Shown here in pieces: positions 17,976 through 31,971 of a DNA stretch of 32,204 nt. The DNA comes from Fidelibacterota bacterium (GTDB lineage Bacteria; Fidelibacterota; Marinisomatia; Marinisomatales; UBA2128): assembly GCA_046861645.1 (NCBI GenBank), contig JBHHUM010000024.1, positions 1 to 32,204 on the forward strand, read 5' to 3'. How positions within the stretch are numbered: position 1 is the first letter of the stretch; every line of letters starts with the position of its first letter. A program made the position numbers and the translations under genes. The notes beneath the pieces were generated by a model. It saw nothing but the letters and a program-made list of their open reading frames with translations. It did not search any database and was not told the origin of the DNA.

Positions 17976-18059
17976 ATTATTGCTTTTTTGTTTTCTGAGG
18001 CATGGTTCTCATTACCTGATTACATTTTAATACAAGCGATAGTGACTTTTACTATAAGG

Positions 18060-18091
18060 AAACCACTATACACCCTAATAAAACCACTATA
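18060..18091. promoter_or_regulatory. Direct-repeat candidate operator
   Basis: AAACCACTATA occurs at 18060-18070 and 18081-18091 (21-bp period). Extra ACTATA copies are at 18051 and 18221. The site is upstream of the minus-strand genes. Confidence 0.55.
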
Positions 18092-18304
18092 TTTTTCAAA
18101 ATAATGAGACCTACGTTACAATAACTTGAATAGACAGGGGCTTTAAGTCATTCTGATGTAAGATTTTAACAGTTTAGTTTTAAAGAAAAATCTCATTGAT
18201 CGAAAAATAAAAAAAGAGGGACTATACGGGGGAAATAGTAACCTGCTTATTAAATATCCTTAGTGGATCGTTAGTCGTAAGTAAATATGAAGACCTTAAT
18301 ATTG

Positions 18305-21300
18305 TTATGATAACTGTGAGATAAATTTATAGAGATTTTCTCCGGGTGCGAGTTTCAACTTTTTTCTTAATTGAGTGCGATATACTTCAATCGTTTTTAC
18401 GGCAAGGTTGGTTAAGCTGGCAATGTCTTTTGTATTCAGGTTGAGCTTTAAGAATGCACAGATTTTCATCTCTCGAGAAGTTAGTTCAGGATAATTCTCA
18501 GTAAGAATCTTAAAAAAGTTTTGATGAACTTCTTGAAACCACAACTCGAATTCATCCCATTCATGACCTGAACTAATCTGATAATTCAGTTTAGTAAGGA
18601 TATTTTTGATTCGTTTTTTATTATCATCATGACTTATCGAGTACAGGTTCTGAACCTCTTTAATGATATCAACTAATATTTCTCGATCATTGGCCATGTG
18701 CATGGCTTTAGTTGTTAATTCTTTATTTCTAGCTTCAAGATTTTCTTTTAACTTGTTTTCGAGTTCTTTTCTCTCAGTAATATCAGTCCAATATTCTATC
18801 ATTTGAACAACATTGTCGTCAGAATCAAAAATAGGGAATGCATTAATTTCCGCATAGACTGTTTTTCCATGCAGATCTACGTATTGTCGCTCGTAAGTGA
18901 CCAGCTGTTTGTTTTTCTTAACATCTGGTAGAGGACAATAGTGATTGGAATGATTGCAAGGTTCGTTATTATTAAAGAGTAGTGAATGACAAAACATTGC
19001 ACCAGATTTTACTCTTTTCATGGCGGCTGAATTTTTTAGTACTGTTTCATATGTATTTGCATCAATTACATAAAATGGCTGGGAAAGTGATTCGATGACA
19101 CTATTTAAAAATTGGTTTTGTCTTTCAATTTCTTTCTGATTATGCTGAATTTCTACGGTTCTTTCTAGTACCTGCCTTTCAAGGAGTGCTTTTTGTTTTT
19201 TTATCTGCTTCAGCCTTAATTGAATGGTAGTAAAGAAAAGGCCTAACAGTGCTAAAACATAAAAGGAATACGCCCACCATGTTTTCCAAAATGGGGGTAT
19301 TATTTTGATAGGTAAGGATATACCTGTTTTATTCCAAATACCATCATGGTTTGTACCTTTGACTTTAAATGTATAATTACCAGCAGGTAAATGGGTGTAA
19401 GTCGCAAATCGTTTAGATGCGTCTGTATATATCCAATTAGGGTCATAACCTTCCATTTTATATGCATATTTATTTTTCTCTGGGGCGGTAAAGCTTAGTG
19501 CTGAAAAAATGAAAGTAAAATCCCTGTCTTTATAGGATAATATAAGTTCATCTGTCTCAGTAATATGACTGTGAAGTATTGTGCCGCTTTCTAATGTCTC
19601 TCCAATCGGAACTGATTTACTGAATATTGTTAAATCAGTCAAAACAATTTCTGGGGCGATACTGTCATTTTGAACTTTTTCTGGAAAAAAAGCGTTCAAT
19701 CCCCCAATACCACCAAAAAACATTTCACCCGTCCAACTTTTATAATATGCTCCTGTGTTGAATTCATTATTTTGAAGCCCGTCGCGGATATCAAAATTTC
19801 TAAATGTCTCTTTTTCAGGATTAAACTTTGATATGCCATTATTAGTACTTAACCAAAGATTCTTTTTGGCATCCTCTAATATACCATATACCACATCGTT
19901 GGGGAGTCCATCTTTAACTGTGTAGTATTTAAATATTTGACTGTTATGATCGAATTTGTTCAATCCTCCGCTACTGGTACCAATCCAGATGATACCAGAT
20001 TGGTCCTGATAAATACACTTGATGCGATTATTACTTATAGTATTGGTATTTTGGGGATCATGGGTATAACGGACAAACGTTTCTGAATGGTTGTCAAAAC
20101 GGATTAAGCCGGATACTTCTGTTCCAAGCCATAAGAATCCATCCTGATCAATTATGATAGAATTGACCGTTATTTCACCCAAAAGAGAAGAATAATTAAC
20201 GAAATGCCCGTTCTTCATATTTTCATAAGATAATTGAGAGAGACCTTCTTCTGATCCAATCCATAGATTGCCATTTTTATCTAATAGTAATTCAAATATG
20301 AAATCTCCAGGGAGATTCGACGGATGATTATTATCACCGTAATGGGTAAAAATTTCCAGTTCCGGGTTAAAATGGTACAGACCACCCCCTTCAGTTCCTA
20401 CCCAAAGCATTCCGTCAATATCTCCAACGATAGAGTAAACATTTGTGTTTTGTAAACCATGGGGGTTTTCGGGATCAAATCCATAGTGAGTTGATTTGTA
20501 AGCTTTTCTATCAAACTTATCCAAGCCGCCGTAAGAACCAACCCAAAGGACACTGTCACGGCTTTCGTATATCGCTCGAATAATCGTACTGCTTAAGCTA
20601 TTTGAATCAGTAGAAATATGGGTATAGTTTTTGAATTTTGGAGTAAGAGTAAATCGGGCTAATCCAGATCCATTCGTTCCAACCCAAATGAGATTAGCAT
20701 TATCCCGATACAAGACGAGTATTCCACTCAAACTCAAACCAGATGAATTGTTTGAGTCATGTTGAATGTATTGATAAGATGTTGTTTTTGGATCAAAACG
20801 GAACATTCCTTTACCGCTTGCGCCAATCAAGAGAATTCCAGAATCGTCTTCTGTAATTGCAGTAACTTCTGTCAATTTCCCATCTAACAGAAGGGGAAAA
20901 TTTATAAGTTTTTTAATTCTACGATCAAACAGGTTCAACCCTATATTGGCCCCGATCCAGAGGTTGTTATAACTATCTTCCCAAATATACTGAATCCGGT
21001 TTTGGTCAGGTGTGGTTTGGGTATTTCCAATGGATAGAAAATTTTCAAAACTTTTTGTTTTAGAATTATATTGGCTCAAACCTCCTTTTTCTGTACCGAT
21101 CCAAAGAATATTGTTTTGATCTTTATACAAACACCGAATATGATCATCATTTAATTGATTTCCGGAAGAATGACTGATGTGAATAAATCGATTATTCTTA
21201 ATATCAAATAATTCTAAGCCATCTCCCCAGGTTCCGATCCATAGCCTACCATTTTTCTCTTCAGAGATAGCCCAAATGCGATTATTTGACAAACTATTGG

Positions 21301-21700
21301 TATCGGCAGGGTCATGGCGGTAACTCACAAAAGTTTCTTTTTTTCTATTAAACCGATTGAGTCCTCCATTCTCAGTGCCTATCCAAAGTGTTCCAGATTT
21401 ATCCTCATAGAGGCATCTAACGTAGTTATCAGAAATGGTGGTAGAATCAAAAGGATCATGTTTATAGATAGTAAAAGTATATCCATCATATTTATTTAAC
21501 CCATCCTGGGTGCCAAACCACAGATACCCTTTGCTGTCTTGCAAGATAGAATGGACTGTACTTTGAGATAATCCTTCATCGATGTTAATATGATCAAATT
21601 TGATGGAGGGAGTCTGAGCATAGAGGGGAGTTAGGAGGATATTTCCACCTAGCTGGAATAAAATTAAACCTGAAATGATGAATTTGTCTAGTTTTCTCAA
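18305..21700 (-). CDS. Membrane-spanning one-component regulator: Reg_prop beta-propellers + Y_Y_Y + TM + PAS + LuxR-type HTH
   Basis: GLSQSTV..QDSKGYLWFGTQDGLNKYDGY repeats; YAYKMEGYD..ATYTHLPAGNYTFKVKG; PPFWKTWWAY TM; PAS/PAC ending TDITERKELE; YPELTSREMKICAFLKLNLNTKDIA..VEVYRTQLRKKL. No H-box or receiver seen. Confidence 0.9.
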   Translation of the reverse strand: MRKLDKFIISGLILFQLGGNILLTPLYAQTPSIKFDHINIDEGLSQSTVHSILQDSKGYLWFGTQDGLNKYDGYTFTIYKHDPFDSTTISDNYVRCLYEDKSGTLWIGTENGGLNRFNRKKETFVSYRHDPADTNSLSNNRIWAISEEKNGRLWIGTWGDGLELFDIKNNRFIHISHSSGNQLNDDHIRCLYKDQNNILWIGTEKGGLSQYNSKTKSFENFLSIGNTQTTPDQNRIQYIWEDSYNNLWIGANIGLNLFDRRIKKLINFPLLLDGKLTEVTAITEDDSGILLIGASGKGMFRFDPKTTSYQYIQHDSNNSSGLSLSGILVLYRDNANLIWVGTNGSGLARFTLTPKFKNYTHISTDSNSLSSTIIRAIYESRDSVLWVGSYGGLDKFDRKAYKSTHYGFDPENPHGLQNTNVYSIVGDIDGMLWVGTEGGGLYHFNPELEIFTHYGDNNHPSNLPGDFIFELLLDKNGNLWIGSEEGLSQLSYENMKNGHFVNYSSLLGEITVNSIIIDQDGFLWLGTEVSGLIRFDNHSETFVRYTHDPQNTNTISNNRIKCIYQDQSGIIWIGTSSGGLNKFDHNSQIFKYYTVKDGLPNDVVYGILEDAKKNLWLSTNNGISKFNPEKETFRNFDIRDGLQNNEFNTGAYYKSWTGEMFFGGIGGLNAFFPEKVQNDSIAPEIVLTDLTIFSKSVPIGETLESGTILHSHITETDELILSYKDRDFTFIFSALSFTAPEKNKYAYKMEGYDPNWIYTDASKRFATYTHLPAGNYTFKVKGTNHDGIWNKTGISLPIKIIPPFWKTWWAYSFYVLALLGLFFTTIQLRLKQIKKQKALLERQVLERTVEIQHNQKEIERQNQFLNSVIESLSQPFYVIDANTYETVLKNSAAMKRVKSGAMFCHSLLFNNNEPCNHSNHYCPLPDVKKNKQLVTYERQYVDLHGKTVYAEINAFPIFDSDDNVVQMIEYWTDITERKELENKLKENLEARNKELTTKAMHMANDREILVDIIKEVQNLYSISHDDNKKRIKNILTKLNYQISSGHEWDEFELWFQEVHQNFFKILTENYPELTSREMKICAFLKLNLNTKDIASLTNLAVKTIEVYRTQLRKKLKLAPGENLYKFISQLS

Positions 21701-22116
21701 TTTAGGGGGTGAGTTATGAACTGTTGTTTTAATGATTCAATAATTTACTTCTATCCCTAATAAAAACAAATAACAGTCCATTCAGGTTTGAGTAATAAGT
21801 TGGAGTCAGCAAATCTTTTTATTCTCAGCTGTAATGAAACTGAGGAAAAGTTATTTACTCTGAAACTGGGGAAACTGTTGAAATAAATATCTTTAAAAAG
21901 TAAAATTGGATAGCATTAAGAGCGCTTTTAACCAACAAGCCATGTGAAAAGGATAAATAGTGACCTTGAAACTATTTTTTACCTGCTTTGCTAACATGAC
22001 AGAGAATTGATATCTCCTTAAATGAGTAAATCATTTGAACTTCGAATTTCTCTTAATAATCTCAATTTTCTATTCCAATCATAATGTAATCATCTGATCA
22101 AACTTATGAATACTAG

Positions 22117-23469
22117 TTGATTACATTGAAGATATCTGGTATCAACATTTATTTTATCATTTCAGTTTTATATAGTGTAAGTATATCTCAAGACAATTTC
22201 ATCACTCAATCACAATCCGAAATAGATACCCTTAAGCAAACTATAGCTGATAAGGAACAGAATAAAGTTTCCCTCTACCATTTCGAGCAAAAGGATTCCA
22301 CCAAAGAGATACTCATAAACCTTTCAGGAGAGGAAATTCCTACAATAGATATTGAAACCGCAACTCATGTTCTGGCTAAGCCCTGGTACAGGAATATTGA
22401 CATTACTGGATTTGGAGGAACTGGTTTTCTGGATACAGGTGAAAAAGGAACCAGGCCTTACGGTGGGTTTCTAATTAAAGAAGCCTCTCTTTTCTTAGAG
22501 GGCGATGTTTGGGAGGATGTTACTTATTATCTTGAAATTCAAACAAACCGACTGGGAAAGGATAGCACTTTATTCATTCGTACCGGAGAGGTTTATATTC
22601 ATTTCTATGATGTTTTCAGGCAAATGGATCGGAGTTCAGTTGGACTTAAAATAGGAAGAATTGATGTTCCTTTCGGAGAAGAATACCTTTGGCAGGATGC
22701 CTCAGAGAATCCCTTAATTTCCAATTCTGCCGCATATCCTTATGGATTTGATGAAGGTATATTAATATACGGAAAGCTTTCAGGTCTTGGATGGATAATA
22801 GCTGTAACGGATGGTACTCAGGTACGAAGTTATGATGATCATTCAGACAAAGCATTCAATGTTAAAGTCTATGGGAATCTAAGGAAGGGACTTTATCTTA
22901 GTGCAAGCTTTATGGACAATGGTGAAGCCGGTATTAGTGCTGTCGAGTTTGGGGGTAGTCACTTTGAACCCGTAGGAGTAACTTATCAATCGAGTGCTGG
23001 CGTCTCCATTAGTGAAACGATAAGAGCACGGCTTTATGAAATAGATGTCCAGTATAGTATGGGAGAATCAATTGAATTTGTTCATTTATATTCGTCATTT
23101 GGAAAAGCATTCTTGATAGACAGTGATGAATCTTTCAGCCGGGATTGGAATTGGTTTGTGTTGGAACCATTTTTAAGTATTTATCAAAAAGGTTATTTTG
23201 TTGCCAGATACAGTGAGATTGGTACCTATGATTCAAAAAGTGGTTACCATTTTGAAGGTAAAACTACAGCAGGTGGGAAAGATGCTTTTGGTTATGATAT
23301 TAAACGATTCAGAAGGTTGTCCTGGGGACTGGGCTGGAAGCCTAACCCACATGTAACTTTTAAATTGGAAGTTGGTCGAGATTGGTTTGATTTAATTGAT
23401 CAATCGATTATTGATCCTCATAATAACAAAAGAAAGCTGATAGGGTTTGAAGTCGTAGCTCAATTTTAA
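22117..23469 (+). CDS. Outer-membrane beta-barrel protein (OprO/P-like porin)
   Basis: Signal-like N-terminus, short coiled coil, LKIGRIDVPFGEEY motif typical of this porin class, amphipathic strands and a C-terminal Phe (FEVVAQF). Confidence 0.8.
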   Translation: MITLKISGINIYFIISVLYSVSISQDNFITQSQSEIDTLKQTIADKEQNKVSLYHFEQKDSTKEILINLSGEEIPTIDIETATHVLAKPWYRNIDITGFGGTGFLDTGEKGTRPYGGFLIKEASLFLEGDVWEDVTYYLEIQTNRLGKDSTLFIRTGEVYIHFYDVFRQMDRSSVGLKIGRIDVPFGEEYLWQDASENPLISNSAAYPYGFDEGILIYGKLSGLGWIIAVTDGTQVRSYDDHSDKAFNVKVYGNLRKGLYLSASFMDNGEAGISAVEFGGSHFEPVGVTYQSSAGVSISETIRARLYEIDVQYSMGESIEFVHLYSSFGKAFLIDSDESFSRDWNWFVLEPFLSIYQKGYFVARYSEIGTYDSKSGYHFEGKTTAGGKDAFGYDIKRFRRLSWGLGWKPNPHVTFKLEVGRDWFDLIDQSIIDPHNNKRKLIGFEVVAQF

Positions 23470-23479
23470 TATAGAATAA

Positions 23480-24532
23480 ATGAGTCTATCTCCTAAAAAA
23501 CATCCAGTTATTACTTTTACATTAAGTATAGCTTTAAGTTTTTCTATCTGTATATCGTCTCAAGTTGAAGAGCTCCAAGAAAGTAATATCAACCCTATTA
23601 TGTTACAATTAAGTAATTCTATCATTGGAATACAGAAGGCTTTGACGAGAAGCGATAGAGAGGCGTTAATACCATATATAAACATAATGGTTAGTGCTAC
23701 CAATGAAATAGACATATTAGAGCCCCAGATTAATAAAAACCTGATGGATATATTCGACAATTATCGTAAAGATATTAAACAACTTGCTTCAGATTTGAAA
23801 TCCACTGTTAAGTCGAAATCCTTAAAGCAGGTGCATCTTGTTGTGAAAGAAATTCGGAAGACTTGTATTAGCTGCCATGTAATATTTCGGGAATTTACAA
23901 GTGACTACGATTTATTTCCCAGCATAGGAAATATTATTACAGGAAAAGTTAAGATTATCAAATATGATGGAAAAGCAAGATCGGATCTATCTGATGTAGT
24001 TGTTTTCATAGATCGAGTGTACAACCAAAAGACACAGATGATTACCAGAGATTACCCTTCGGTTTCACAAAAGGACCGTAAATTTGATCCCCGGGTACTT
24101 CCCATTCTAAAGGGGACTACAGTAGAATTTCCTAATGATGACTTAATATTTCACAATGTATTCTCTCTTTCAAAATGTAAACCATTTGATTTAGATGTCT
24201 ACCCACCAGGAACGTCTAAATACGTGACTTTCGATAAAACTGGTTGGGTGAAAGTTTATTGTAACATTCATCCTCAAATGGTATCTCATATAATTGTTCT
24301 TGATAATTCTTATTTCTCTATAACAAACAGGAGTGGTTTGTTTGTTATCCCAGATGTTCCCGATGGCGAATATACTTTAAGGGTCTGGTACGAATTTGGA
24401 TCCGATATACATAGAGAAATACAGTTGTCTGGACCTTCATTATTCAATACTTCCTTCTTAATAAATGAGGATAAGAAATTTATCCAGCATAGAAATAAGT
24501 TCGGTAAACCCTATCGTGGGAAGTACAAATGA
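23480..24532 (+). CDS. Periplasmic fusion: cytochrome c'-like helical heme c domain + cupredoxin/carboxypeptidase-regulatory-like domain
   Basis: Signal peptide; helical ~110-aa domain ending in CISCH (23864-23878). Then QKDRKFDPRVLPILKGTTVEFPNDDLIFHNVFS and YCNIHPQM (His..Cys-x2-His-x2-Met type-1 Cu ligand set), and VPDGEYTLRVW. Confidence 0.85.
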   Translation: MSLSPKKHPVITFTLSIALSFSICISSQVEELQESNINPIMLQLSNSIIGIQKALTRSDREALIPYINIMVSATNEIDILEPQINKNLMDIFDNYRKDIKQLASDLKSTVKSKSLKQVHLVVKEIRKTCISCHVIFREFTSDYDLFPSIGNIITGKVKIIKYDGKARSDLSDVVVFIDRVYNQKTQMITRDYPSVSQKDRKFDPRVLPILKGTTVEFPNDDLIFHNVFSLSKCKPFDLDVYPPGTSKYVTFDKTGWVKVYCNIHPQMVSHIIVLDNSYFSITNRSGLFVIPDVPDGEYTLRVWYEFGSDIHREIQLSGPSLFNTSFLINEDKKFIQHRNKFGKPYRGKYK

Positions 24533-27018
24533 TTAAGGCAACAATAAGAGTTAAGTACTTTCTTGCTATTTTTGTGGTTTCCTTTATCTTCATTCTGATA
24601 TCAGTAATTGTTATGAATATTTTTCTTTCCCGATTGGCCATGAATGAAATTACTCAAGGTCTGCGAAGTGGAGTATTAGCCTTTGAGCGTTTTGCCGCAC
24701 TTAGAGATGATTTGTTAGCAAATCAGGCCAGATCTATATCCCAAACTCCCCACCTGAAAGCTGTTATGAACATTCCAGATGTGGATTCTAAAACAGTTTA
24801 TTACACTGCTAGAGAACTCTATGATATTAACAATATAGATTTAATGCTTTTAATTGATGATGAAGGAAAACTTATTGCAGATGCAGAAGATACACTCAAT
24901 TATGGTAGTGATATGACTTCATTCCCAGGTGTTTTGAATGGATTAGATGGTATAGAGTATAATGGTATATACAGCTATAAAGGTGACCTTTATTTGGTTG
25001 CTCTTACCCCTGTTGTAATTGGTAAACAGTTACTGGGATTATTGATTATAGGGGATCGAATTGATTCTACAACAGCAGAGGATATTCGAGAATTCACCGG
25101 TAGGGATGTCTTGTTAGTTTACTCTCAAATGATTATTTCACAATCTAACCAAAACAAGGCATTTTTATCCGTAAACCAGAATGAGTTGACAACACTGTTG
25201 GACCACTTTCAAACATTTAATTCCCCATTTTATTGTACTTTAGGAGAAAAAGACTGTTTAGCTGTTGTCATATCCCTCAAAAGTTCAGGTGGATATACAG
25301 TATTATTCAGAGCTCTTGATGAAGTGAACAGTGTTTTGACGGTTGCTAAGATCTCATTATTGGGAGCTGGAGGAGCCACCATTCTTTTAGCAGCAATATT
25401 AAGTTTCTGGCTTTCAGCTCGGGTCAGTAGACCCATTCTAAATCTGAGGGATGCAGTCAGACAATTTGGAGCGGGAAAACTTGATCAGCGTATTACTGTG
25501 CCTTCACAAGATGAGCTGGGACAGTTATCGAGCGCCTTTAATAAAATGGCCGAAGATATTCACTCTGCCAGAAAAGCTTTAGAATCAGAAAGAGACTATG
25601 TTCACAGTATTCTGCATTCCATGATTGAAATGCTGATTGTACTTAATCCTGATGGAAAAATTCGTGCAGTCAATCAAGCAGCAGTGAAGTCACTTCATTA
25701 TTCGGAAAGTGAGCTGGTTGGAAGATCTTTTCAAACTATCATCTATTCCGCCAGGGAAGCTTCAGAAAAAAAACCTCTAAAGGACATTTGGGAGACTCTC
25801 ATTAAGAATCGCTTCGTGCGTGATATTGAAGGAGTACTCCTATCAAAAGAAAATAGAGAGATCCCGGTGATCATCTCATGTTCGGTTATGAGTGATAATC
25901 AGGATAGAATCCAAGGTGTTGTTTGCGTTGCTCAAGATATTAGTGTAAGAATAGAGGCTGAGAAAGACATTCGTAAGTTGTCCGTGGCAGTAGAGCAGAG
26001 CCCAAGTGCAGTTGTGATTACTGATATTGATGGAAATATTAATTATGTAAATCCCAAATTCGAAAAAGTATCAGGATATATGGCTGAGGAGGTGTTAGGA
26101 AAGAATCCTCGGATTCTAAAATCGGGTAAGCAGCCACGGGAGTATTACAAGGAACTATGGGATACTATTAAATCTGGGAAAGAATGGCGGGGAGAATTCT
26201 GTAACCGTAAAAAGAATGGTGACATATTCTGGGTTCATGCATATGTTTCACCCATCATTGATGGGGAAGGTAATATCACTAATTTTCTTTCTGTTCAGGA
26301 AGATATTACTGAGCGCAAACGATCGGAAAAACTTCTGGAGAATTCTCAAAAACAGTTACAAGCCTTATCATCCCACATACAACGCTTACAGGAGGACGAG
26401 CGAGCCCGGATTGCCCGAGAAATTCACGATCAATTGGGACAATCATTAACTGGTATGAAGATGGATCTAGCCTGGTTGAAAGATGAACTACCTGAAAAAT
26501 ACAAACCCCTGATTGATAGTATTATAGATCTGGCGAATTCAACAATGACTTCGGTACGTAAGATTTCCACCCAGTTAAGACCTGGAGTTTTGGATGATTT
26601 AGGTTTGATGGCGGCAATTGATTGGCAGGTAGAAGAATTTCAAGAACGATCTGGAATAGAATGCGACTTACGTATCGATTCAGAAGATATTACTATTGAT
26701 CACGATAGGTCTACGGCAATATTCAGGATTTTACAGGAAGCTTTGACGAACGTGCTGCGACACGCAGACGCTAGCAAAGTGATAATTTCTTTGAGTGTGA
26801 AAGATGGGATACTACAGATGAAAGTTGTTGATAATGGAAAAGGAATACATAAGACTCAAGTTAACGATAGAAAATCTTTAGGATTACTTGGCATGAAAGA
26901 GCGCCTTCTTCCCTGGGGCGGTAGGTTTAAGATTGGTAGTGTCAATGGTTCTGGGACAATTGTGAATGTATGGTTACCTCTAATAAATGAGCAATCTACT
27001 CCTGAAGTGAAGGTTTAA
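24529..27018 (+). CDS. Sensor histidine kinase (periplasmic Cache-like, HAMP, 2x PAS, HisKA_3, HATPase_c)
   Basis: Two TMs; DELGQLSSAFNKM (HAMP); two PAS/PAC domains; RIAREIHDQLGQ H-box; LRPGVLDDLGL; QEALTNVLRHA; DNGKG; LGLLGMKER. Start overlaps the upstream stop (ATGA). Confidence 0.95.
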   Translation: MIKATIRVKYFLAIFVVSFIFILISVIVMNIFLSRLAMNEITQGLRSGVLAFERFAALRDDLLANQARSISQTPHLKAVMNIPDVDSKTVYYTARELYDINNIDLMLLIDDEGKLIADAEDTLNYGSDMTSFPGVLNGLDGIEYNGIYSYKGDLYLVALTPVVIGKQLLGLLIIGDRIDSTTAEDIREFTGRDVLLVYSQMIISQSNQNKAFLSVNQNELTTLLDHFQTFNSPFYCTLGEKDCLAVVISLKSSGGYTVLFRALDEVNSVLTVAKISLLGAGGATILLAAILSFWLSARVSRPILNLRDAVRQFGAGKLDQRITVPSQDELGQLSSAFNKMAEDIHSARKALESERDYVHSILHSMIEMLIVLNPDGKIRAVNQAAVKSLHYSESELVGRSFQTIIYSAREASEKKPLKDIWETLIKNRFVRDIEGVLLSKENREIPVIISCSVMSDNQDRIQGVVCVAQDISVRIEAEKDIRKLSVAVEQSPSAVVITDIDGNINYVNPKFEKVSGYMAEEVLGKNPRILKSGKQPREYYKELWDTIKSGKEWRGEFCNRKKNGDIFWVHAYVSPIIDGEGNITNFLSVQEDITERKRSEKLLENSQKQLQALSSHIQRLQEDERARIAREIHDQLGQSLTGMKMDLAWLKDELPEKYKPLIDSIIDLANSTMTSVRKISTQLRPGVLDDLGLMAAIDWQVEEFQERSGIECDLRIDSEDITIDHDRSTAIFRILQEALTNVLRHADASKVIISLSVKDGILQMKVVDNGKGIHKTQVNDRKSLGLLGMKERLLPWGGRFKIGSVNGSGTIVNVWLPLINEQSTPEVKV

Positions 27019-27072: not shown

Positions 27073-27723
27073 ATGATTAGGATATTTGTTTTGGATGATC
27101 ATGCTATAATCCGAGAAGGATTACAACGCATTATCTCAAAGACCAATGATATAAAAATTGTAGGAGAAGCCGGGGATGCCAAAGAAATTATCAAGAAGGT
27201 AGTGAATCGTGAATGGAAAGTGGATATAGTACTACTGGATATCACACTTCCTGGCAGAAGCGGTATAGAAGTGATGAATGAACTAAAAGCCATTAGACCC
27301 GAGTTACGTTTCCTTGTTCTTAGTATACATCCCGAAGATCAGTATGCAATTAGGGCTCTCAGATCAGGTGCTTCAGGGTATATGACGAAGGATAGCGCAC
27401 CTGAACAATTAGTCGGAGCTATTCGAAAAATCTTTTCAGGAGGAAAGTATATCAGTCCCAGTCTTGCTGAGAGACTGGCCAGTTATGTTCGACAAGATTA
27501 TGATAGACCTGTTCATGAAACCCTTTCCAACCGGGAATTTCAGGTAATGTGCATGATTGCTTCTGGGAAGACAGTCTCTGAAATTGCTAAAGAATTGACT
27601 CTAAGCGTAAAAACTATCAGTGCTTATAGATCTAAAGTATTAGAAAAAATGAACATGAAAACAAATGCTCAACTGACTTTGTATGTTCTTCAGAAGAAAC
27701 TGACAGATTGGTCAGCTGTATAG
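27073..27723 (+). CDS. NarL/FixJ-family response regulator (REC + LuxR HTH)
   Basis: LDDHAIIREGL, LLDITLPGRSG, GASGYMTK, LSNREFQV...LSVKTISAYR. Confidence 0.96.
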   Translation: MIRIFVLDDHAIIREGLQRIISKTNDIKIVGEAGDAKEIIKKVVNREWKVDIVLLDITLPGRSGIEVMNELKAIRPELRFLVLSIHPEDQYAIRALRSGASGYMTKDSAPEQLVGAIRKIFSGGKYISPSLAERLASYVRQDYDRPVHETLSNREFQVMCMIASGKTVSEIAKELTLSVKTISAYRSKVLEKMNMKTNAQLTLYVLQKKLTDWSAV

Positions 27724-27911: not shown

Positions 27912-28292
27912 ATGAAAGTAATAGTTGTAGATGATTCAGAAATCGTCCGGAAGAGAATAGATAACATGTTGTCAAAACTGGAAGGAGTTGAAAACGTATT
28001 TGTCGTGAGTAGTCGTAACGAAGCCATTGCAATGCTTGGAAAACGAAAGTTAGATGTGGCTATCATCGATATTCACCTCCCTGAGGGTAGTGGAATAGAA
28101 CTCTTGAAGTATATCAAAAAATATTTTCTGAATATGAAGGTAATTATGCTCTGTAATTCCGCTTTAATCCAATATCGTAAAATATGTTATGAAAGCGGTG
28201 CTGACTTCTTTTTCGACAAATCATCTGAATTCGAGGAAGTAAGTAAGCTCCTTCTTCGGATAAGTGATACAAAACCCCAAAACTCAACTTAA
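27912..28292 (+). CDS. Stand-alone receiver-domain response regulator
   Basis: VVDDS, IIDIHLPEGSG (phospho-Asp), GADFFFDKS; no output domain. Confidence 0.92.
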   Translation: MKVIVVDDSEIVRKRIDNMLSKLEGVENVFVVSSRNEAIAMLGKRKLDVAIIDIHLPEGSGIELLKYIKKYFLNMKVIMLCNSALIQYRKICYESGADFFFDKSSEFEEVSKLLLRISDTKPQNST

Positions 28293-28310
28293 TTGAAAGG
28301 AGTTCATACC

Positions 28311-29435
28311 ATGAAATGGAAATATCAAAAGCCCCTAGGTTTTTTAATAGTCTCGTTGAGTTTATTCTATGGTTGTGAAGGACCTCAAGGACCAGCAGGC
28401 GAACCTGGAGCTAACGGTAGTGATGGTGTCGATGCTACTGCACTACCACCCGCTAACACTTTTTTCAGTTTAGCTGTAAATAATAATGCTGGAGATATGC
28501 AATTTGGATCATTTGTCAATTATTTGGCTTTCGATTCAATCGATGCTGAGATTTCAGTAAATTATCCTGATGCTCCTCAGGTAGTGTCCTATAAAACCCC
28601 TTTACCTCCAGAAATTGACGGTACTGAAGCCGAAGGTGAATGGATAGGAAGTGGAGCTACTATCTCCCTCGAACTGATCGAGGAATTTGAGAAATATGAT
28701 GGAATAGATCCACCAGGTGTAACCTCGGTAAATGTTAAGGCCATGTATGATGAGTTATATGTTTACTTTCAGCTTTCATGGAATGATGCTGATGAAAGTG
28801 ATGAATTAAGCAAACTTGAATATAATAGTGCGACTGGTTGGAGTAGTTCAGGGAATGAGGATCGATTTTACTTTCATTGGCCAATTACTGGCTTTCCCGA
28901 CACTGATTTTGCCGATGGGAATGGCTGTGATGCCTTCTGTCATTTCGACACTAATGCCGCTAATGGAAAAGGTTATATGTTTACAGAATTTCCAGATCAG
29001 TTAGTAGATACCTGGCAATGGAAAGCTTGTCGTTCCAATCCTAAAGGCTACGTTCATGATAAACACTTGATTTACCAGGATGAAGCTAATTTAGTTGACT
29101 TAACAACTAAATGGAGTGGACGTAAGGGAGATCAGGGGAATGATCCCTATATTGAAAATAAATTACAAAGTACTGGGTTTCCTAAATATATGCACATCAA
29201 TGATCCCAATGCTAACGCCGGTTATCCGTCATTCACATATGAAATGATACCCTTCGATACGTCTGCTTTATTTAATGATGGGGCGACGATTCCAGGGATT
29301 TTTCTGAGAGATCCGAACGGAAGCGGAGCTGATGTCCATGCAAAGGGTATATATTCCGATAACGGTTGGGTTGTTGAACTCAAACGTCTTCGAAATACTG
29401 GTCATGGTGATGATCATCAGTTTCTTCCAGAATAA
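28311..29435 (+). CDS. Lipoprotein with collagen-like linker and ethylbenzene-dehydrogenase gamma-like (EB_dh) heme domain carrying CX3CH
   Basis: AAGGAG RBS before ATG 28311; lipobox FYGC; six G-X-Y triplets (28380-28433). Domain motifs PPEIDG..EW, VKAMYD..VYFQLSWND, EDRFYFHWP, GCDAFCH, DTWQWKA and GWVVELKRLRNTG..DD.QF. Confidence 0.82.
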   Translation: MKWKYQKPLGFLIVSLSLFYGCEGPQGPAGEPGANGSDGVDATALPPANTFFSLAVNNNAGDMQFGSFVNYLAFDSIDAEISVNYPDAPQVVSYKTPLPPEIDGTEAEGEWIGSGATISLELIEEFEKYDGIDPPGVTSVNVKAMYDELYVYFQLSWNDADESDELSKLEYNSATGWSSSGNEDRFYFHWPITGFPDTDFADGNGCDAFCHFDTNAANGKGYMFTEFPDQLVDTWQWKACRSNPKGYVHDKHLIYQDEANLVDLTTKWSGRKGDQGNDPYIENKLQSTGFPKYMHINDPNANAGYPSFTYEMIPFDTSALFNDGATIPGIFLRDPNGSGADVHAKGIYSDNGWVVELKRLRNTGHGDDHQFLPE

Positions 29436-29493
29436 TCATTCTGTAAAATTAGTAGAATATGGAAATGCTAATTATGAATCCTAATAACGGGGA

Positions 29494-30444
29494 ATGGGGA
29501 AAACGCGAATAGCGGTTTTAAGCTATTTATACACGGTAGGGGCATTCTGTGTATTTGGGTTTTTATCTGCCCAGAATGTCCCTTATTCTAATTTCCTAAG
29601 TGGTGAAAATACTTATATTTCCTATTGTGCACCATGTCATGGAGTTAGGGGTGATGGCCACAGCCCGGCGGCAAGAGCAATGTCTCCATCTCCCCGAGAT
29701 TTTTCCTCAGGATTGTACAAATTCAGGTCGACCCTATCAGGATCTTTACCTACCGATGATGATTTAATATTGTCTATAAGTAACGGACTACCAGGCACTT
29801 GGATGCCTAGTTGGAAAGGTGTTCTTTCTGATGAGCAAATTGAAGACGTAACTGCTTATATAAAAACTCTCTTGAACAGTGAGCAGAAGTGGAAACAATC
29901 GGAGTCTCTACCCTCACTTTCATATAACCCTCCTTTGGCTTCATCAGAATTATTGAGGGATGGTAGAGGATTTTATCTGTTACTTGAATGCTGGACTTGT
30001 CATGGTTTGGATGGAAAAGGAAATGGACCCTCAGCAATGGCTTTGAAAGATAGTAAAAACAAGCCAATTAAACCTACAAACTTAACGGAGAAAAAATATC
30101 GTGCAGGTACTTCAGTTACAAATATTCGAAAAACGATTCTGACTGGTCTTACAGGTACACCGATGCCAAGCTACAAGGATCTTTTCCTTTTGGCTAAGGA
30201 GGATATTAATGAAATAGAGTTTTCGAAAGATTTACCACACTCCAGTAGAGAGATTTTTCACAGTTTTGTTTCACAACTTCCTTCAAATACTGAATTGAAC
30301 AGTCTGACTGAAGAAATGATTACAGAACTTTCAATCAGGAATGAGTGGGCATTAGCATATTATGTACGTTCTCTAATAAAGAAAGAAAGTTGGTACGATT
30401 GGTTGTTTAGATCTAATCCAGAGGATGTACAACTTTCTGAATAG
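29494..30444 (+). CDS. Periplasmic diheme c-type cytochrome
   Basis: Signal peptide; CAPCHG (29626) with PRDFSSGLYKFRST..GSLPTDDDL..GLPGTWMP; CWTCHG (29989) with P-x-NLT..GLTGTPMPSY. Two His/Met class I domains. Confidence 0.92.
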   Translation: MGKTRIAVLSYLYTVGAFCVFGFLSAQNVPYSNFLSGENTYISYCAPCHGVRGDGHSPAARAMSPSPRDFSSGLYKFRSTLSGSLPTDDDLILSISNGLPGTWMPSWKGVLSDEQIEDVTAYIKTLLNSEQKWKQSESLPSLSYNPPLASSELLRDGRGFYLLLECWTCHGLDGKGNGPSAMALKDSKNKPIKPTNLTEKKYRAGTSVTNIRKTILTGLTGTPMPSYKDLFLLAKEDINEIEFSKDLPHSSREIFHSFVSQLPSNTELNSLTEEMITELSIRNEWALAYYVRSLIKKESWYDWLFRSNPEDVQLSE

Positions 30445-30913
30445 TAAGATTAATCTTTTTCTCTTTACAACATGTTTAATATTCTTGATTACATGTGTAG
30501 GTGATGGTGTAGGTCTGGATGAGTTTGGAAATCCTATCGCTCCTGAAGATTCGACAGATTCTACGGGTAATGGTGATAATGGTTCAACAGGTCTGAGAGC
30601 AACGCTTAGTAGCATTCAGACGAATATATTTGATCAAATCTGTGCTGTCAAGTGTCATAAATCACCCCGGCCTAAAAAGAATCTTAATTTGGAGACGGGA
30701 AAAGCTTATGATAATCTTGTAGATATTCCGAGTAAAGAGATACCGGCAATGATGCGTGTTCTGCCAGAAGATTCAGAAAATAGCTATATCATCTGGAAAT
30801 TAGAGGGGCGTGATGGTATAAATGGGAAGCAAATGCCTCTGAATCAGACACCCTTAGAAGATAATCAGATTCAGGTTATCCGAGATTGGATCGATGCAGG
30901 AGCATTGCCATGA
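30425..30913 (+). CDS. Monoheme cytochrome c lipoprotein (planctomycete cytochrome c-like), atypical CX3CH
   Basis: Lipobox LITC; acidic Gly/Ser/Thr linker; IQTNIFDQICAVKCH; RVLPEDSENSYIIWKL; QMP..L..QI..IRDWIDAGA. Confidence 0.8.
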   Translation: MYNFLNSKINLFLFTTCLIFLITCVGDGVGLDEFGNPIAPEDSTDSTGNGDNGSTGLRATLSSIQTNIFDQICAVKCHKSPRPKKNLNLETGKAYDNLVDIPSKEIPAMMRVLPEDSENSYIIWKLEGRDGINGKQMPLNQTPLEDNQIQVIRDWIDAGALP

Positions 30914-31971
30914 AATGGAGAATAATGAAAATTATCTTCGTCTTTTTCATCCTATTACACATCCGATCAATTTATGCTGAACCGTACATTGCCATTCGTA
31001 CCGGATTTAAATGCAGTCAATGTCATGTAAATTTAACTGGAGGCGGGAAACGAACTGACTTAGGGAACATTTTCACTTTAAAATTTCTTCCCTTTCATTT
31101 CATAAAAACATCCCAACCTGTGATATTTTCTCCACAGCTTTCCCGTACTGTCTCTGTTGGTGCTAATCTGCGTATTTATAACTCAATTACCTATGGATAT
31201 ATCGATACGTCTGGAATACTGACTCCAGATGATTATTTATTAGACATAACCGAGGGTAATATTTACATGGAAGTCAGATTGATACCGGAAGTATTGACGC
31301 TATACTTTGATCAGATGGTAAGTCCTAACCCCGGTAATAGAGAAGCCTTTGGTATTTTACAAGGTCTACCATTTAATGGATACATTAAAACCGGTAAAAT
31401 TCTCCTTCCTTATGGACTGAGGCTATGGGATGATAATGTCTTTATCAGGGAAGCAACAGGTTTCAACTACTCATCACCAGAATTAGCTGGAGAAATGGGA
31501 TTTGAACCTGGAAATTTCTCGATAAGTTCTGCTATTACAAGCGATCAGTTTTCTGGTCTAGCTTATTGGATTCGAAAACATGGAAGAGTTGGATTCTCTT
31601 GGCAAAAAGCGACTGATGGGTCGAAACTTTTTATGTTAGGTTCTTTTGTGGGTTTCCATGCAGGTCGATTTACTTTTCTGAGTGAATTGGATCGTATTCA
31701 ATTTTCTAACATAAAACAGCAGGTCTATTTTGCGGAGTTGGATTTTTTATTGGTTCGTGGTAGTAATTTCAAGTTATCATACAATCTACTCGATAGAAAC
31801 CTTAATGTACCTATAGATCGAGATGGACAGGAAAGAATTACCCTGGGATGGGAAGTCTTTCCGATTCAATTTTTTCAATTTTCAATATATTATCATTTTA
31901 ATCGCTTTATTCCACAAAATATCTCTTTAAATCGAGATATGTTGGAGATAGAATTACATTTTTTCTTTTGA
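30910..31971 (+). CDS. Cyc2-like monoheme cytochrome c / outer-membrane beta-barrel fusion
   Basis: Signal peptide ending IYA|EPYIAIRTGFKCSQCH (heme motif 31012-31026), then GGGKRTDLGNIF. Followed by amphipathic strands (YIKTGKILLPYGLR) and the C-terminal beta signal LEIELHFFF. Start is ATG 30910 (overlapping the upstream stop) or 30925 (GGAG RBS). Confidence 0.8.
   Translation: MKWRIMKIIFVFFILLHIRSIYAEPYIAIRTGFKCSQCHVNLTGGGKRTDLGNIFTLKFLPFHFIKTSQPVIFSPQLSRTVSVGANLRIYNSITYGYIDTSGILTPDDYLLDITEGNIYMEVRLIPEVLTLYFDQMVSPNPGNREAFGILQGLPFNGYIKTGKILLPYGLRLWDDNVFIREATGFNYSSPELAGEMGFEPGNFSISSAITSDQFSGLAYWIRKHGRVGFSWQKATDGSKLFMLGSFVGFHAGRFTFLSELDRIQFSNIKQQVYFAELDFLLVRGSNFKLSYNLLDRNLNVPIDRDGQERITLGWEVFPIQFFQFSIYYHFNRFIPQNISLNRDMLEIELHFFF

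Follow-up and report, generated by a model that had tools for sequence, protein, structure and literature searches.

A heme-copper fusion protein encoded between a porin and a dCache_3 kinase: candidate periplasmic co-sensor of an undescribed redox-signalling system

The gene at positions 23480-24532 of the window, our term for the whole 32,204-nt stretch of Fidelibacterota DNA analysed here, encodes a predicted heme c domain fused to a blue-copper domain. The fusion is real, conserved and, as far as we searched, uncharacterised. Its place between a porin and a membrane receptor in relatives from several phyla makes it a likely sensing component of a redox-signalling system not yet described, one that probably reads electrons rather than NO or CO. 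Redox sensing outside the bacterial cytoplasm has been little charted, and for many Cache-domain receptors no ligand is known. The gene and its parts are as follows, with conservation given over a 115-row alignment:

23480-24532, plus strand: fusion gene, 350 aa (ORF call)
23480-23563, plus strand: probable signal peptide, about residues 1-28, the end approximate and set from hydrophobicity (15-residue mean 2.1, low pLDDT)
23576-23899, plus strand: four-helix class II/cb562-like heme c domain, residues 33-140 (model helices; cb562 E 3e-7)
23600-23602, plus strand: Met41, predicted sixth (distal) heme ligand, aligned to b562 Met7 (114 of 115 rows, one gap)
23864-23878, plus strand: CxxCH heme attachment motif, CISCH at residues 129-133, comprising Cys129, Cys132 and His133 (115 of 115 rows)
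23930-24475, plus strand: transthyretin/carboxypeptidase-regulatory-like beta sandwich, about residues 151-180 and 277-332, with the cupredoxin inserted (5aq0 match)
24044-24307, plus strand: amicyanin/plastocyanin-type cupredoxin, residues 189-276 (Cu ligands in 115 of 115 rows; structure matches)
24488-24529, plus strand: conserved basic tail, His337-x2-Lys340-x-Gly...Tyr349 (His337, Lys340 and Tyr349 in 115 of 115 rows)

The chain therefore reads, in order, as a signal-like leader, the heme bundle, the sandwich carrying the cupredoxin, and the tail. The initial annotation had picked out three motifs, CISCH followed by FR, HNVFS and CNIHPQM, and all three lie in the 350-aa ORF, the last two at the positions it gave: VIFR comes directly after CISCH, HNVFS begins at His225 (24152), and CNIHPQM spans residues 261-267 (24260-24280). 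The translational coupling to a sensor kinase that it described was likewise borne out, as the two genes share 4 nt: the fusion ends with TGA at 24530-24532, and the kinase begins with ATG at 24529-24531. By chance, CxxCH is expected in the host genome at 4e-4 and CxxHxxM at 1.2e-3 per 350 aa; the two motifs occur together in 1 of 1277 host ORFs of at least 250 aa, the fusion itself. The leader is the only hydrophobic stretch, and a lipobox-like pattern was present in just 2 of 136 fused proteins; hence the fusion is probably a soluble periplasmic protein. The host encodes cytochrome c maturation proteins (two Cytochrom_C_asm proteins).

A homolog search with the fusion gave 2234 matches, most of which probably cover the C part only. 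We examined the best 120 of these, namely 119 homologs and one record identical to the query; with the query itself added, the set comprised 121 proteins. The Cu motifs were kept in all 121 and CxxCH together with both Cu motifs in 120, the sole exception being a shorter record of 256 aa that lacks the heme-motif region. We conclude that the fusion is a real family and no accident of assembly. The distance from heme His to Cu Cys was 123-131 residues in 136 of 136 fused proteins and exactly 128 in 85 of them. Among variant forms, one 348-aa fused-type protein (P0236) has the Met column and the cupredoxin part without CxxCH, a possible loss of covalent heme attachment. In another locus (L007, 8004-9015), the fused gene is split over two overlapping frames between heme domain and cupredoxin, and representative protein P0122 shows the same break, which may be a sequencing error or a true frameshift.

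We modelled the fusion with AlphaFold2 from the 115-row alignment, as protein only and without cofactors (pLDDT 89.9, pTM 0.85). The model has four long helices within residues 39-136 (39-56, 60-75, 86-112 and 115-136) followed by a beta C-terminal part, and structure searches divided the chain into a four-helix bundle, a cupredoxin and a transthyretin-like sandwich. The four-helix bundle proposed in the initial annotation was thus recovered, with CxxCH at the end of helix 4. The high pTM and the narrow heme-His to Cu-Cys spacing suggest that the domains are packed in a fixed arrangement.

What kind of heme does the bundle hold? Its structure matches were cytochrome c' 6a3k (Z 13.9, rmsd 4.4), NaxLS 6r6n (Z 13.1, rmsd 3.0), the b562 fusion 3u8p (Z 12.6, rmsd 2.3) and b562 entries (Z about 12.5, rmsd 2.3-2.6), all with Z values near the level that generic helical bundles reach. 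By rmsd, the bundle was closer to b562 (2.3-2.6) than to c' (3.9-5.7). Only Met41, Arg126, Cys129, Cys132, His133 and Arg137 were conserved at 85% or more in the bundle. The near-invariant Arg126 precedes CxxCH, and an Arg at this -3 position occurs in 43 of 44 fused proteins vs 13 of 81 stand-alone relatives. When solved structures were searched with two profiles, cb562 variants came out on top across the full domain (E 3e-7 and 8e-6), while true c' entries matched the C-terminal half of the heme domain only. Similarly, Pfam PF01322 scored 18.7 bits against residues 90-137 only, under its gathering score of 26.5, although some fusion homologs carry PF01322 as a precomputed annotation. HMMER alignments set Met41 on b562 Met7 and His133 on His102. 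Met7 and His102 are the axial ligands of b562, and His/Met ligation marks the low-spin electron-transfer cytochromes b562 and c556. The alignment of Met41 with Met7 of cytochrome b562/cb562 therefore points to a six-coordinate His/Met electron-transfer heme. Judged from the sequence, a c'-type heme is unlikely and a low-spin one with His/Met ligands probable. This divides the earlier proposal of a cytochrome c' domain: the class II four-helix c-type fold stands, and the high-spin, NO/CO-binding c' heme no longer leads, given the invariant Met41 and the full-length matches, best to cb562.

Searching a library with the heme domain, we found 288 representatives at E of 0.001 or below. Among the best 150 of these, 45 had the cupredoxin part and 105 lacked it, and 82 of the 105 had CxxCH and a Met in the same column. 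Hence the heme domain appears to have its origin in a broader family, that of small cytochromes c of the Met/His four-helix kind. Many members (P0135, P0140, P0141, P0152, P0170 and others) are stand-alone proteins of 110-200 aa; the set also includes tandem two-domain and three-heme forms, and its members resemble natural cb562 analogues.

Perhaps the protein is instead a sensor of gas or of reactive nitrogen or oxygen species, in which the heme binds NO or CO with Met41 displaced or unbound and the change is relayed through the cupredoxin to the kinase? A Met at the b562 Met7-equivalent place need not ligate iron, since it is unbound in R. molischianum cytochrome c'. Moreover, the top structural match is a cytochrome c', tied with NaxLS. 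NaxLS is termed an electron/NO shuttle in the accessible part of a preprint (10.64898/2026.02.25.707902), and the available portion of PMC12889525 describes heme-c Cache domains that can sense NO; both would favour a gas sensor. The invariant Met at the b562 ligand position, the lower rmsd to b562 and the half-length sequence matches of c' entries argue the other way, and with the genomic evidence below we consider the gas reading unlikely.

The four predicted Cu ligands, His225 (24152), Cys261 (24260), His264 and Met267 (24278-24280), are each present in 115 of 115 rows. Among solved structures, the domain aligned with amicyanin 1aac at Z 12.7 and rmsd 2.0 and with plastocyanin 7zqe at Z 12.6 and rmsd 1.4. 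A Foldseek search likewise gave a cupredoxin fold (E 5e-8), and the loop is the C-x2-H-x2-M of amicyanin. The type-1 copper ligand set of the initial annotation is therefore upheld by both conservation and fold. The hosting sandwich matched 5aq0 over model range 151-332 (Z 11.3, rmsd 2.2, 81 residues aligned), with a weak Pfam match to CarboxypepD_reg; in the model, cupredoxin and sandwich together form a MauL-like blue-copper unit. C-part residues conserved only in fused proteins lie largely in the beta sandwich and not around the Cu ligands, a pattern confounded with clade. Because of this clustering, direct heme-to-Cu transfer stays a candidate only. The tail is found in most unfused relatives as well and is absent from some receptor-linked ones. 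We ruled out that it tracks the porin or the receptor: tail-less cupredoxin loci had the same porin family in 7 of 8 cases and the receptor in 8 of 8. The invariant Met41, the sandwich that hosts the cupredoxin and the invariant His337-x2-Lys340...Tyr349 tail had all been missed before.

The fusion gene sits in a compact array:

22117-23469, plus strand: outer-membrane porin gene, predicted 16-strand barrel of the OprP/OprO/DcaP solute-channel type (model, Pfam)
24529-27018, plus strand: sensor histidine kinase, TM - dCache_3/CHASE4-like periplasmic domain (about 24619-25344) - TM - HAMP - two PAS - HisKA_3 - HATPase (Pfam, structure match)
27073-27723, plus strand: NarL/LuxR-type response regulator, receiver and GerE, probable cognate output (domain search)
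27912-28292, plus strand: single-domain receiver protein, candidate system member (domain search; same order in L002)

The porin matched Pfam Porin_O_P at E 9.5e-4, under the cut-off. Its model has 16 strands, an N-terminal helix and a C-terminal Phe, the sequence has no CxxCH, and it was far closer to OprP (Z 26.2, rmsd 2.9, 306 aligned) than to MtrB (Z 11.3, rmsd 9.1). An MtrB-like/MtrAB or Cyc2-type conduit was ruled out by the 16 strands, the likeness to OprP and the lack of CxxCH. Gases need no dedicated solute porin, so that the porin would be superfluous for a gas sensor. The kinase periplasmic domain had an Atlas structure match to dCache_3 (TM 0.91); no solved structure was found to match the receptor sensor profile.

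A GTDB scan found at least 587 relative stretches. Among the best 80, which we kept, 14 loci were fused, and these came from KSB1, Neomarinimicrobiota, Gemmatimonadota, Latescibacterota and Planctomycetota. Our full locus set had 92 rows, 74 unfused and 18 fused, with one fused locus counted twice and hence 17 distinct. The order porin - fusion - dCache_3/HAMP receptor was found in 16 of the 17; in the other (L009), the contig starts inside the gene. By row, the dCache_3 receptor was present in 18 of 18 and the porin in 17 of 18. In 15 of the 16 fused loci other than the window, the receptor start lay, by eye, -4 to +3 nt from the fusion stop, and in the remaining one about 17 nt. All Pfam-scanned receptors of fused loci were histidine kinases except that of L007, whose ORF stops after HAMP. 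A heme-domain pattern scan of metagenomes returned only two loci, both fused triads.

The receptor accompanies the unfused cupredoxins too. Using the window's sensor region alone as query, we found a homolog in 65 of the best 80 of the at least 587 GTDB loci. The receptor profile was positive in 66 of 74 unfused loci, from some of which it had been built; of the eight negatives, five had less than 1.5 kb downstream and three were real misses (L060, L073 and L075). Outputs in the unfused loci included SpoIIE, Ser/Thr kinase, cyclase with kinase, GGDEF/HD, GGDEF/EAL and Hpt kinases. Such counts should be read with the knowledge that profiles A4 and A5 were built partly from counted loci and that related genomes are not independent. 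Across 301 genomes of the host phylum, the receptor profile matched 13 places in 12 genomes, eight of them outside the profile-building set: 12 places were beside a cupredoxin unit and the 13th was at a contig end.

In the same 301 genomes, the C part was matched (E of 1e-40 or below) in 19 and the full fusion in four, the host included; a fifth genome has the porin and then the heme domain at a contig end, and three genomes of the host genus had neither C-part match nor fusion. With just four full fusions, the form is patchy and not common, which answers the objection, foreseen in the initial annotation, that such fusions might be commonplace. In a FastTree of the C part (124 rows, the fused ones being 40 sampled of 136 plus six from loci), all 46 fused rows fell in one branch (support 97), which also takes in three unfused ones, those of L013, L014 and L025. 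This sequence tree fits a single fusion origin with a few losses or early offshoots. One divergent fused subclade, of Planctomycetota (L011, L012, L016 and L018), has a shorter helix 3-4 region, and in four of four loci its fused gene lies downstream of a saccharopine dehydrogenase-like gene. The host phylum also has a tail-less unfused variant (L112-L119) in the order cupredoxin - dCache_3 kinase - porin, whose porin has an insert that the window's porin lacks.

Is the fusion simply an electron carrier, a partner of some periplasmic redox enzyme that is co-transcribed with the regulator and does not signal to the kinase? The host genome encodes three unfused, tail-less cupredoxin paralogs near respiratory or cytochrome genes and with no receptor. 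Two rhizobial plasmid loci likewise have the cupredoxin without a receptor, beside SCO, Sox or oxidase genes, and in the window cytochrome genes follow the regulator. These cases support a carrier, and the host paralogs indicate that the wider cupredoxin family is not all for signalling. However, the same sensor domain family is attached across phyla despite exchanged outputs, intergenic spacing is near zero in 15 of 16 loci, and in the 301 genomes the receptor family is almost never found away from the cupredoxin. We therefore rate the carrier reading as very unlikely. The host genome abounds in respiratory clusters and large multiheme cytochromes with 32, 17, 13 and 8 CxxCH motifs (C165 3314-17184, C67 12034-25421 and C142 11065-16144), and on C165 a CxxCH-tipped barrel-like gene adjoins a cupredoxin paralog.

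The heme part proved exchangeable. In 17 of 74 unfused loci, nearly all from Myxococcota or relatives, a separate multiheme gene (4-5 CxxCH, within 4 kb) lies between cupredoxin and receptor. In two more of the 74, the only CxxCH gene is a diheme one; the other 55 lack a CxxCH gene, none gave a globin match in the DNA examined, and several of them are short. With no heme gene detected in 55 of 74, heme appears dispensable for the cupredoxin module. Plasmid records matching the C part numbered 54, of which nine, from 30 listed, were examined. Besides the two rhizobial loci, one from Comamonas has cupredoxin and receptor without a heme gene, and six from Burkholderiaceae encode DUF3034, a group 1 truncated hemoglobin, a 'methylamine utilization protein' and a Cache/EAL receptor (in L127, from ORFs). 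The truncated hemoglobin has a signal-like leader and occupies the same gene slot as the heme domain; four receptors tested matched the dCache_3 profile (E 1e-21 to 5e-20). The barrel gene is also exchangeable across loci, being BBP2-like, Porin_5-like or of an unnamed family ending in Phe. In 80 loci (the best 80 of at least 587), no unfused cupredoxin had a split heme-domain gene beside it. A 130-aa gene between porin and cupredoxin in L013 was ruled out as a split heme domain, as it is hydrophobic and lacks CxxCH. The initial annotation had described such cupredoxins as often lying beside porins and Cache-domain proteins without a heme domain; the neighbours are indeed these, and the absence of heme holds only in part, given the 17 multiheme and six truncated hemoglobin loci.

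These swaps bear on two alternatives. The signal-peptide-bearing truncated hemoglobin in the slot favours a gas sensor; that most unfused modules have no detected heme gene speaks against one. The second alternative is a sensor of copper or other metal availability: the porin would admit the metal, dCache_3 would read the type-1 site as apo or holo, and the heme would merely set Cu(I)/Cu(II). Every version keeps the Cu site, and no other element is so shared; the 55 loci without detected heme accord with this; so does work, cited in the accessible part of PMC13380032, on CHASE4 domains able to sense copper, heme and iron. However, no copper efflux or chaperone families were found among the window genes or 74 scanned neighbour proteins, and three independent additions of heme fit a redox role better. 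Type-1 copper sites, too, are built for electron transfer. Overall, we find a metal sensor improbable.

Our best explanation is that the fusion is a periplasmic redox co-sensor for the neighbouring dCache_3 kinase, a reading that in our judgement stands an even chance of being right. Several lines of evidence lead to it, among them these: the sensor input is constant while outputs vary (His kinases, SpoIIE, Ser/Thr kinase, cyclase, GGDEF/HD and EAL); 12 of 13 receptor matches in the 301 genomes adjoin the cupredoxin; unrelated heme proteins fill the slot elsewhere (multiheme in 17 of 74, truncated hemoglobin in six loci); and the Cu ligands are invariant, with Met41 and His133 on b562 ligand positions. 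The Burkholderiaceae truncated hemoglobin counts against it, since it suggests O2/NO chemistry and keeps a gas or oxidant reading alive. On this co-sensor model, the fusion would be an exported protein that holds a single low-spin heme c with His/Met ligands and a single type-1 copper. The co-encoded solute porin would let in some small polar redox-active species, and this species or the periplasmic electron pool would shift the oxidation state of the copper, the fixed heme acting as electron relay or buffer. The dCache_3 domain would bind the cupredoxin unit and read its state, a step suggested by genomic context, and HAMP/PAS/HisKA_3 would then phosphorylate the LuxR-type regulator. The cupredoxin unit would be the core, and heme an optional, replaceable add-on that is fused here. 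Of the earlier proposal of a redox or gas sensor feeding the kinase, the redox half and the kinase link are thus retained, and the gas half does not lead, given Met41 and the solute porin. More tentatively, and with somewhat less confidence than in the co-sensor role itself, we propose that this is the fused single-chain form of a widespread trans-envelope redox module, in which a porin feeds a blue-copper co-sensor, dCache_3 reads its oxidation state, and three unrelated heme proteins (cb562-like, truncated hemoglobin and multiheme cytochrome) were independently recruited as electron partner.

Downstream of the receiver gene, 28293-31971 encodes an EB_dh-type lipoprotein, a diheme cytochrome c, a 162-aa protein and a CxxCH-tipped protein ending in Phe, which we take to be Cyc2-like. 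This cytochrome cluster is a possible target of the response regulator. Its order after the fused operon recurs only in L002 among the best 80 of at least 587 GTDB loci, and with this single other fused locus no conserved target genes emerged. A promoter and terminator scan stayed at chance level (38 vs 38.0 and 7 vs 6.3). The sequencing runs listed with the stretch include none of RNA; it is present in four DNA runs from one sample of one study, possibly its source. Upstream, a large Reg_prop/Y_Y_Y/PAS/GerE sensor (18305-21700, minus strand) is divergent from the porin, and L007 has a homolog in front of its porin as well, in that case on the porin's own strand. G+C over 18000-24000 is 33-37%, vs 43% for the genome; together with the patchy distribution of the fusion, this may mark acquired DNA.

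In the literature searched, which excludes subscription papers and supplements and so does not establish absence from print, we found no paper on either the fusion or its wider module. What this analysis adds is the heme-fused form, the correction concerning the Met ligand and the three-way comparison of the heme slot. The locus points to a dCache_3 subfamily whose signal comes from a metalloprotein partner and not from a free metabolite. It also offers a testable role for many genes mislabelled 'methylamine utilization protein' and for the adjoining hemoglobin gene in culturable Burkholderiaceae. As both coloured cofactors would sit on one small soluble chain, redox state, gas binding and receptor binding should be directly measurable. 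If the module proposal is right, the fusion would serve as a two-component input that reports on electrons relayed from heme to copper within one molecule, and no other member would be simpler to reconstitute.

Compared with known systems, the heme domain shares with cytochrome b562 and engineered cb562 the four-helix bundle, the C-terminal heme His and a helix-1 Met at the Met7 position (Met-His spacing 92 vs 95 residues, rmsd 2.3-2.6), at an identity of only 12-16%. It differs in its natural CxxCH, the joined cupredoxin unit and the signalling operon. The class IIb cytochrome c556, with its His/Met low-spin heme, is presumably a close known kind, though not matched by name. Cytochrome c' (class IIa, PF01322) has the same fold (Z 11.6-13.9), and its CxxCH, too, lies where helix 4 ends. 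Cytochrome c' keeps an open distal heme site, whereas the fusion has, by sequence, an invariant Met there, matches Pfam below threshold and is not a stand-alone protein. NaxLS (Kusta0087/0088 of Kuenenia stuttgartiensis) is a further cytochrome c built as a four-helix bundle (Z 13.1, rmsd 3.0); aligning 34-147 with its 25-135 would bring Met41 near its residue 32, which is mutated to Met in the entry, a correspondence at the level of ranges only. It is without cupredoxin fusion or receptor and, according to the accessible text of PMC8388095, is a two-protein complex that binds hydrazine synthase.

The copper domain shares with amicyanin and plastocyanin the cupredoxin fold and the C-x2-H-x2-M loop, and here it is inserted in a transthyretin-like sandwich and fused to heme. 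It is 46% identical over 111 aa (E 1e-25) to a MauL-like 'methylamine utilization protein', an annotation that is a label only. None of the 22 window proteins matched a methylamine dehydrogenase family, so the window shows no mau cluster, and the part of PMC2474590 available names MauL only as a mau accessory protein. The Burkholderiaceae cluster of DUF3034 - group 1 truncated hemoglobin - MauL-like - EAL, for which we found no describing paper in the literature searched, has the same order of barrel-like gene, heme protein, cupredoxin and receptor with a homologous domain. It differs in its non-homologous barrel candidate, separate b-type globin, lack of the tail and c-di-GMP output.

In the TorT-TorS and LuxP-LuxQ systems, a soluble periplasmic protein is encoded with a kinase bearing a periplasmic sensor domain. 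The fusion resembles TorT and LuxP in being co-encoded and co-distributed with a receptor sensor domain, a likeness of predicted role and not of observed binding. In contrast to these systems, its accessory protein is a heme/copper redox protein rather than a solute-binding protein, and it comes with its own porin.
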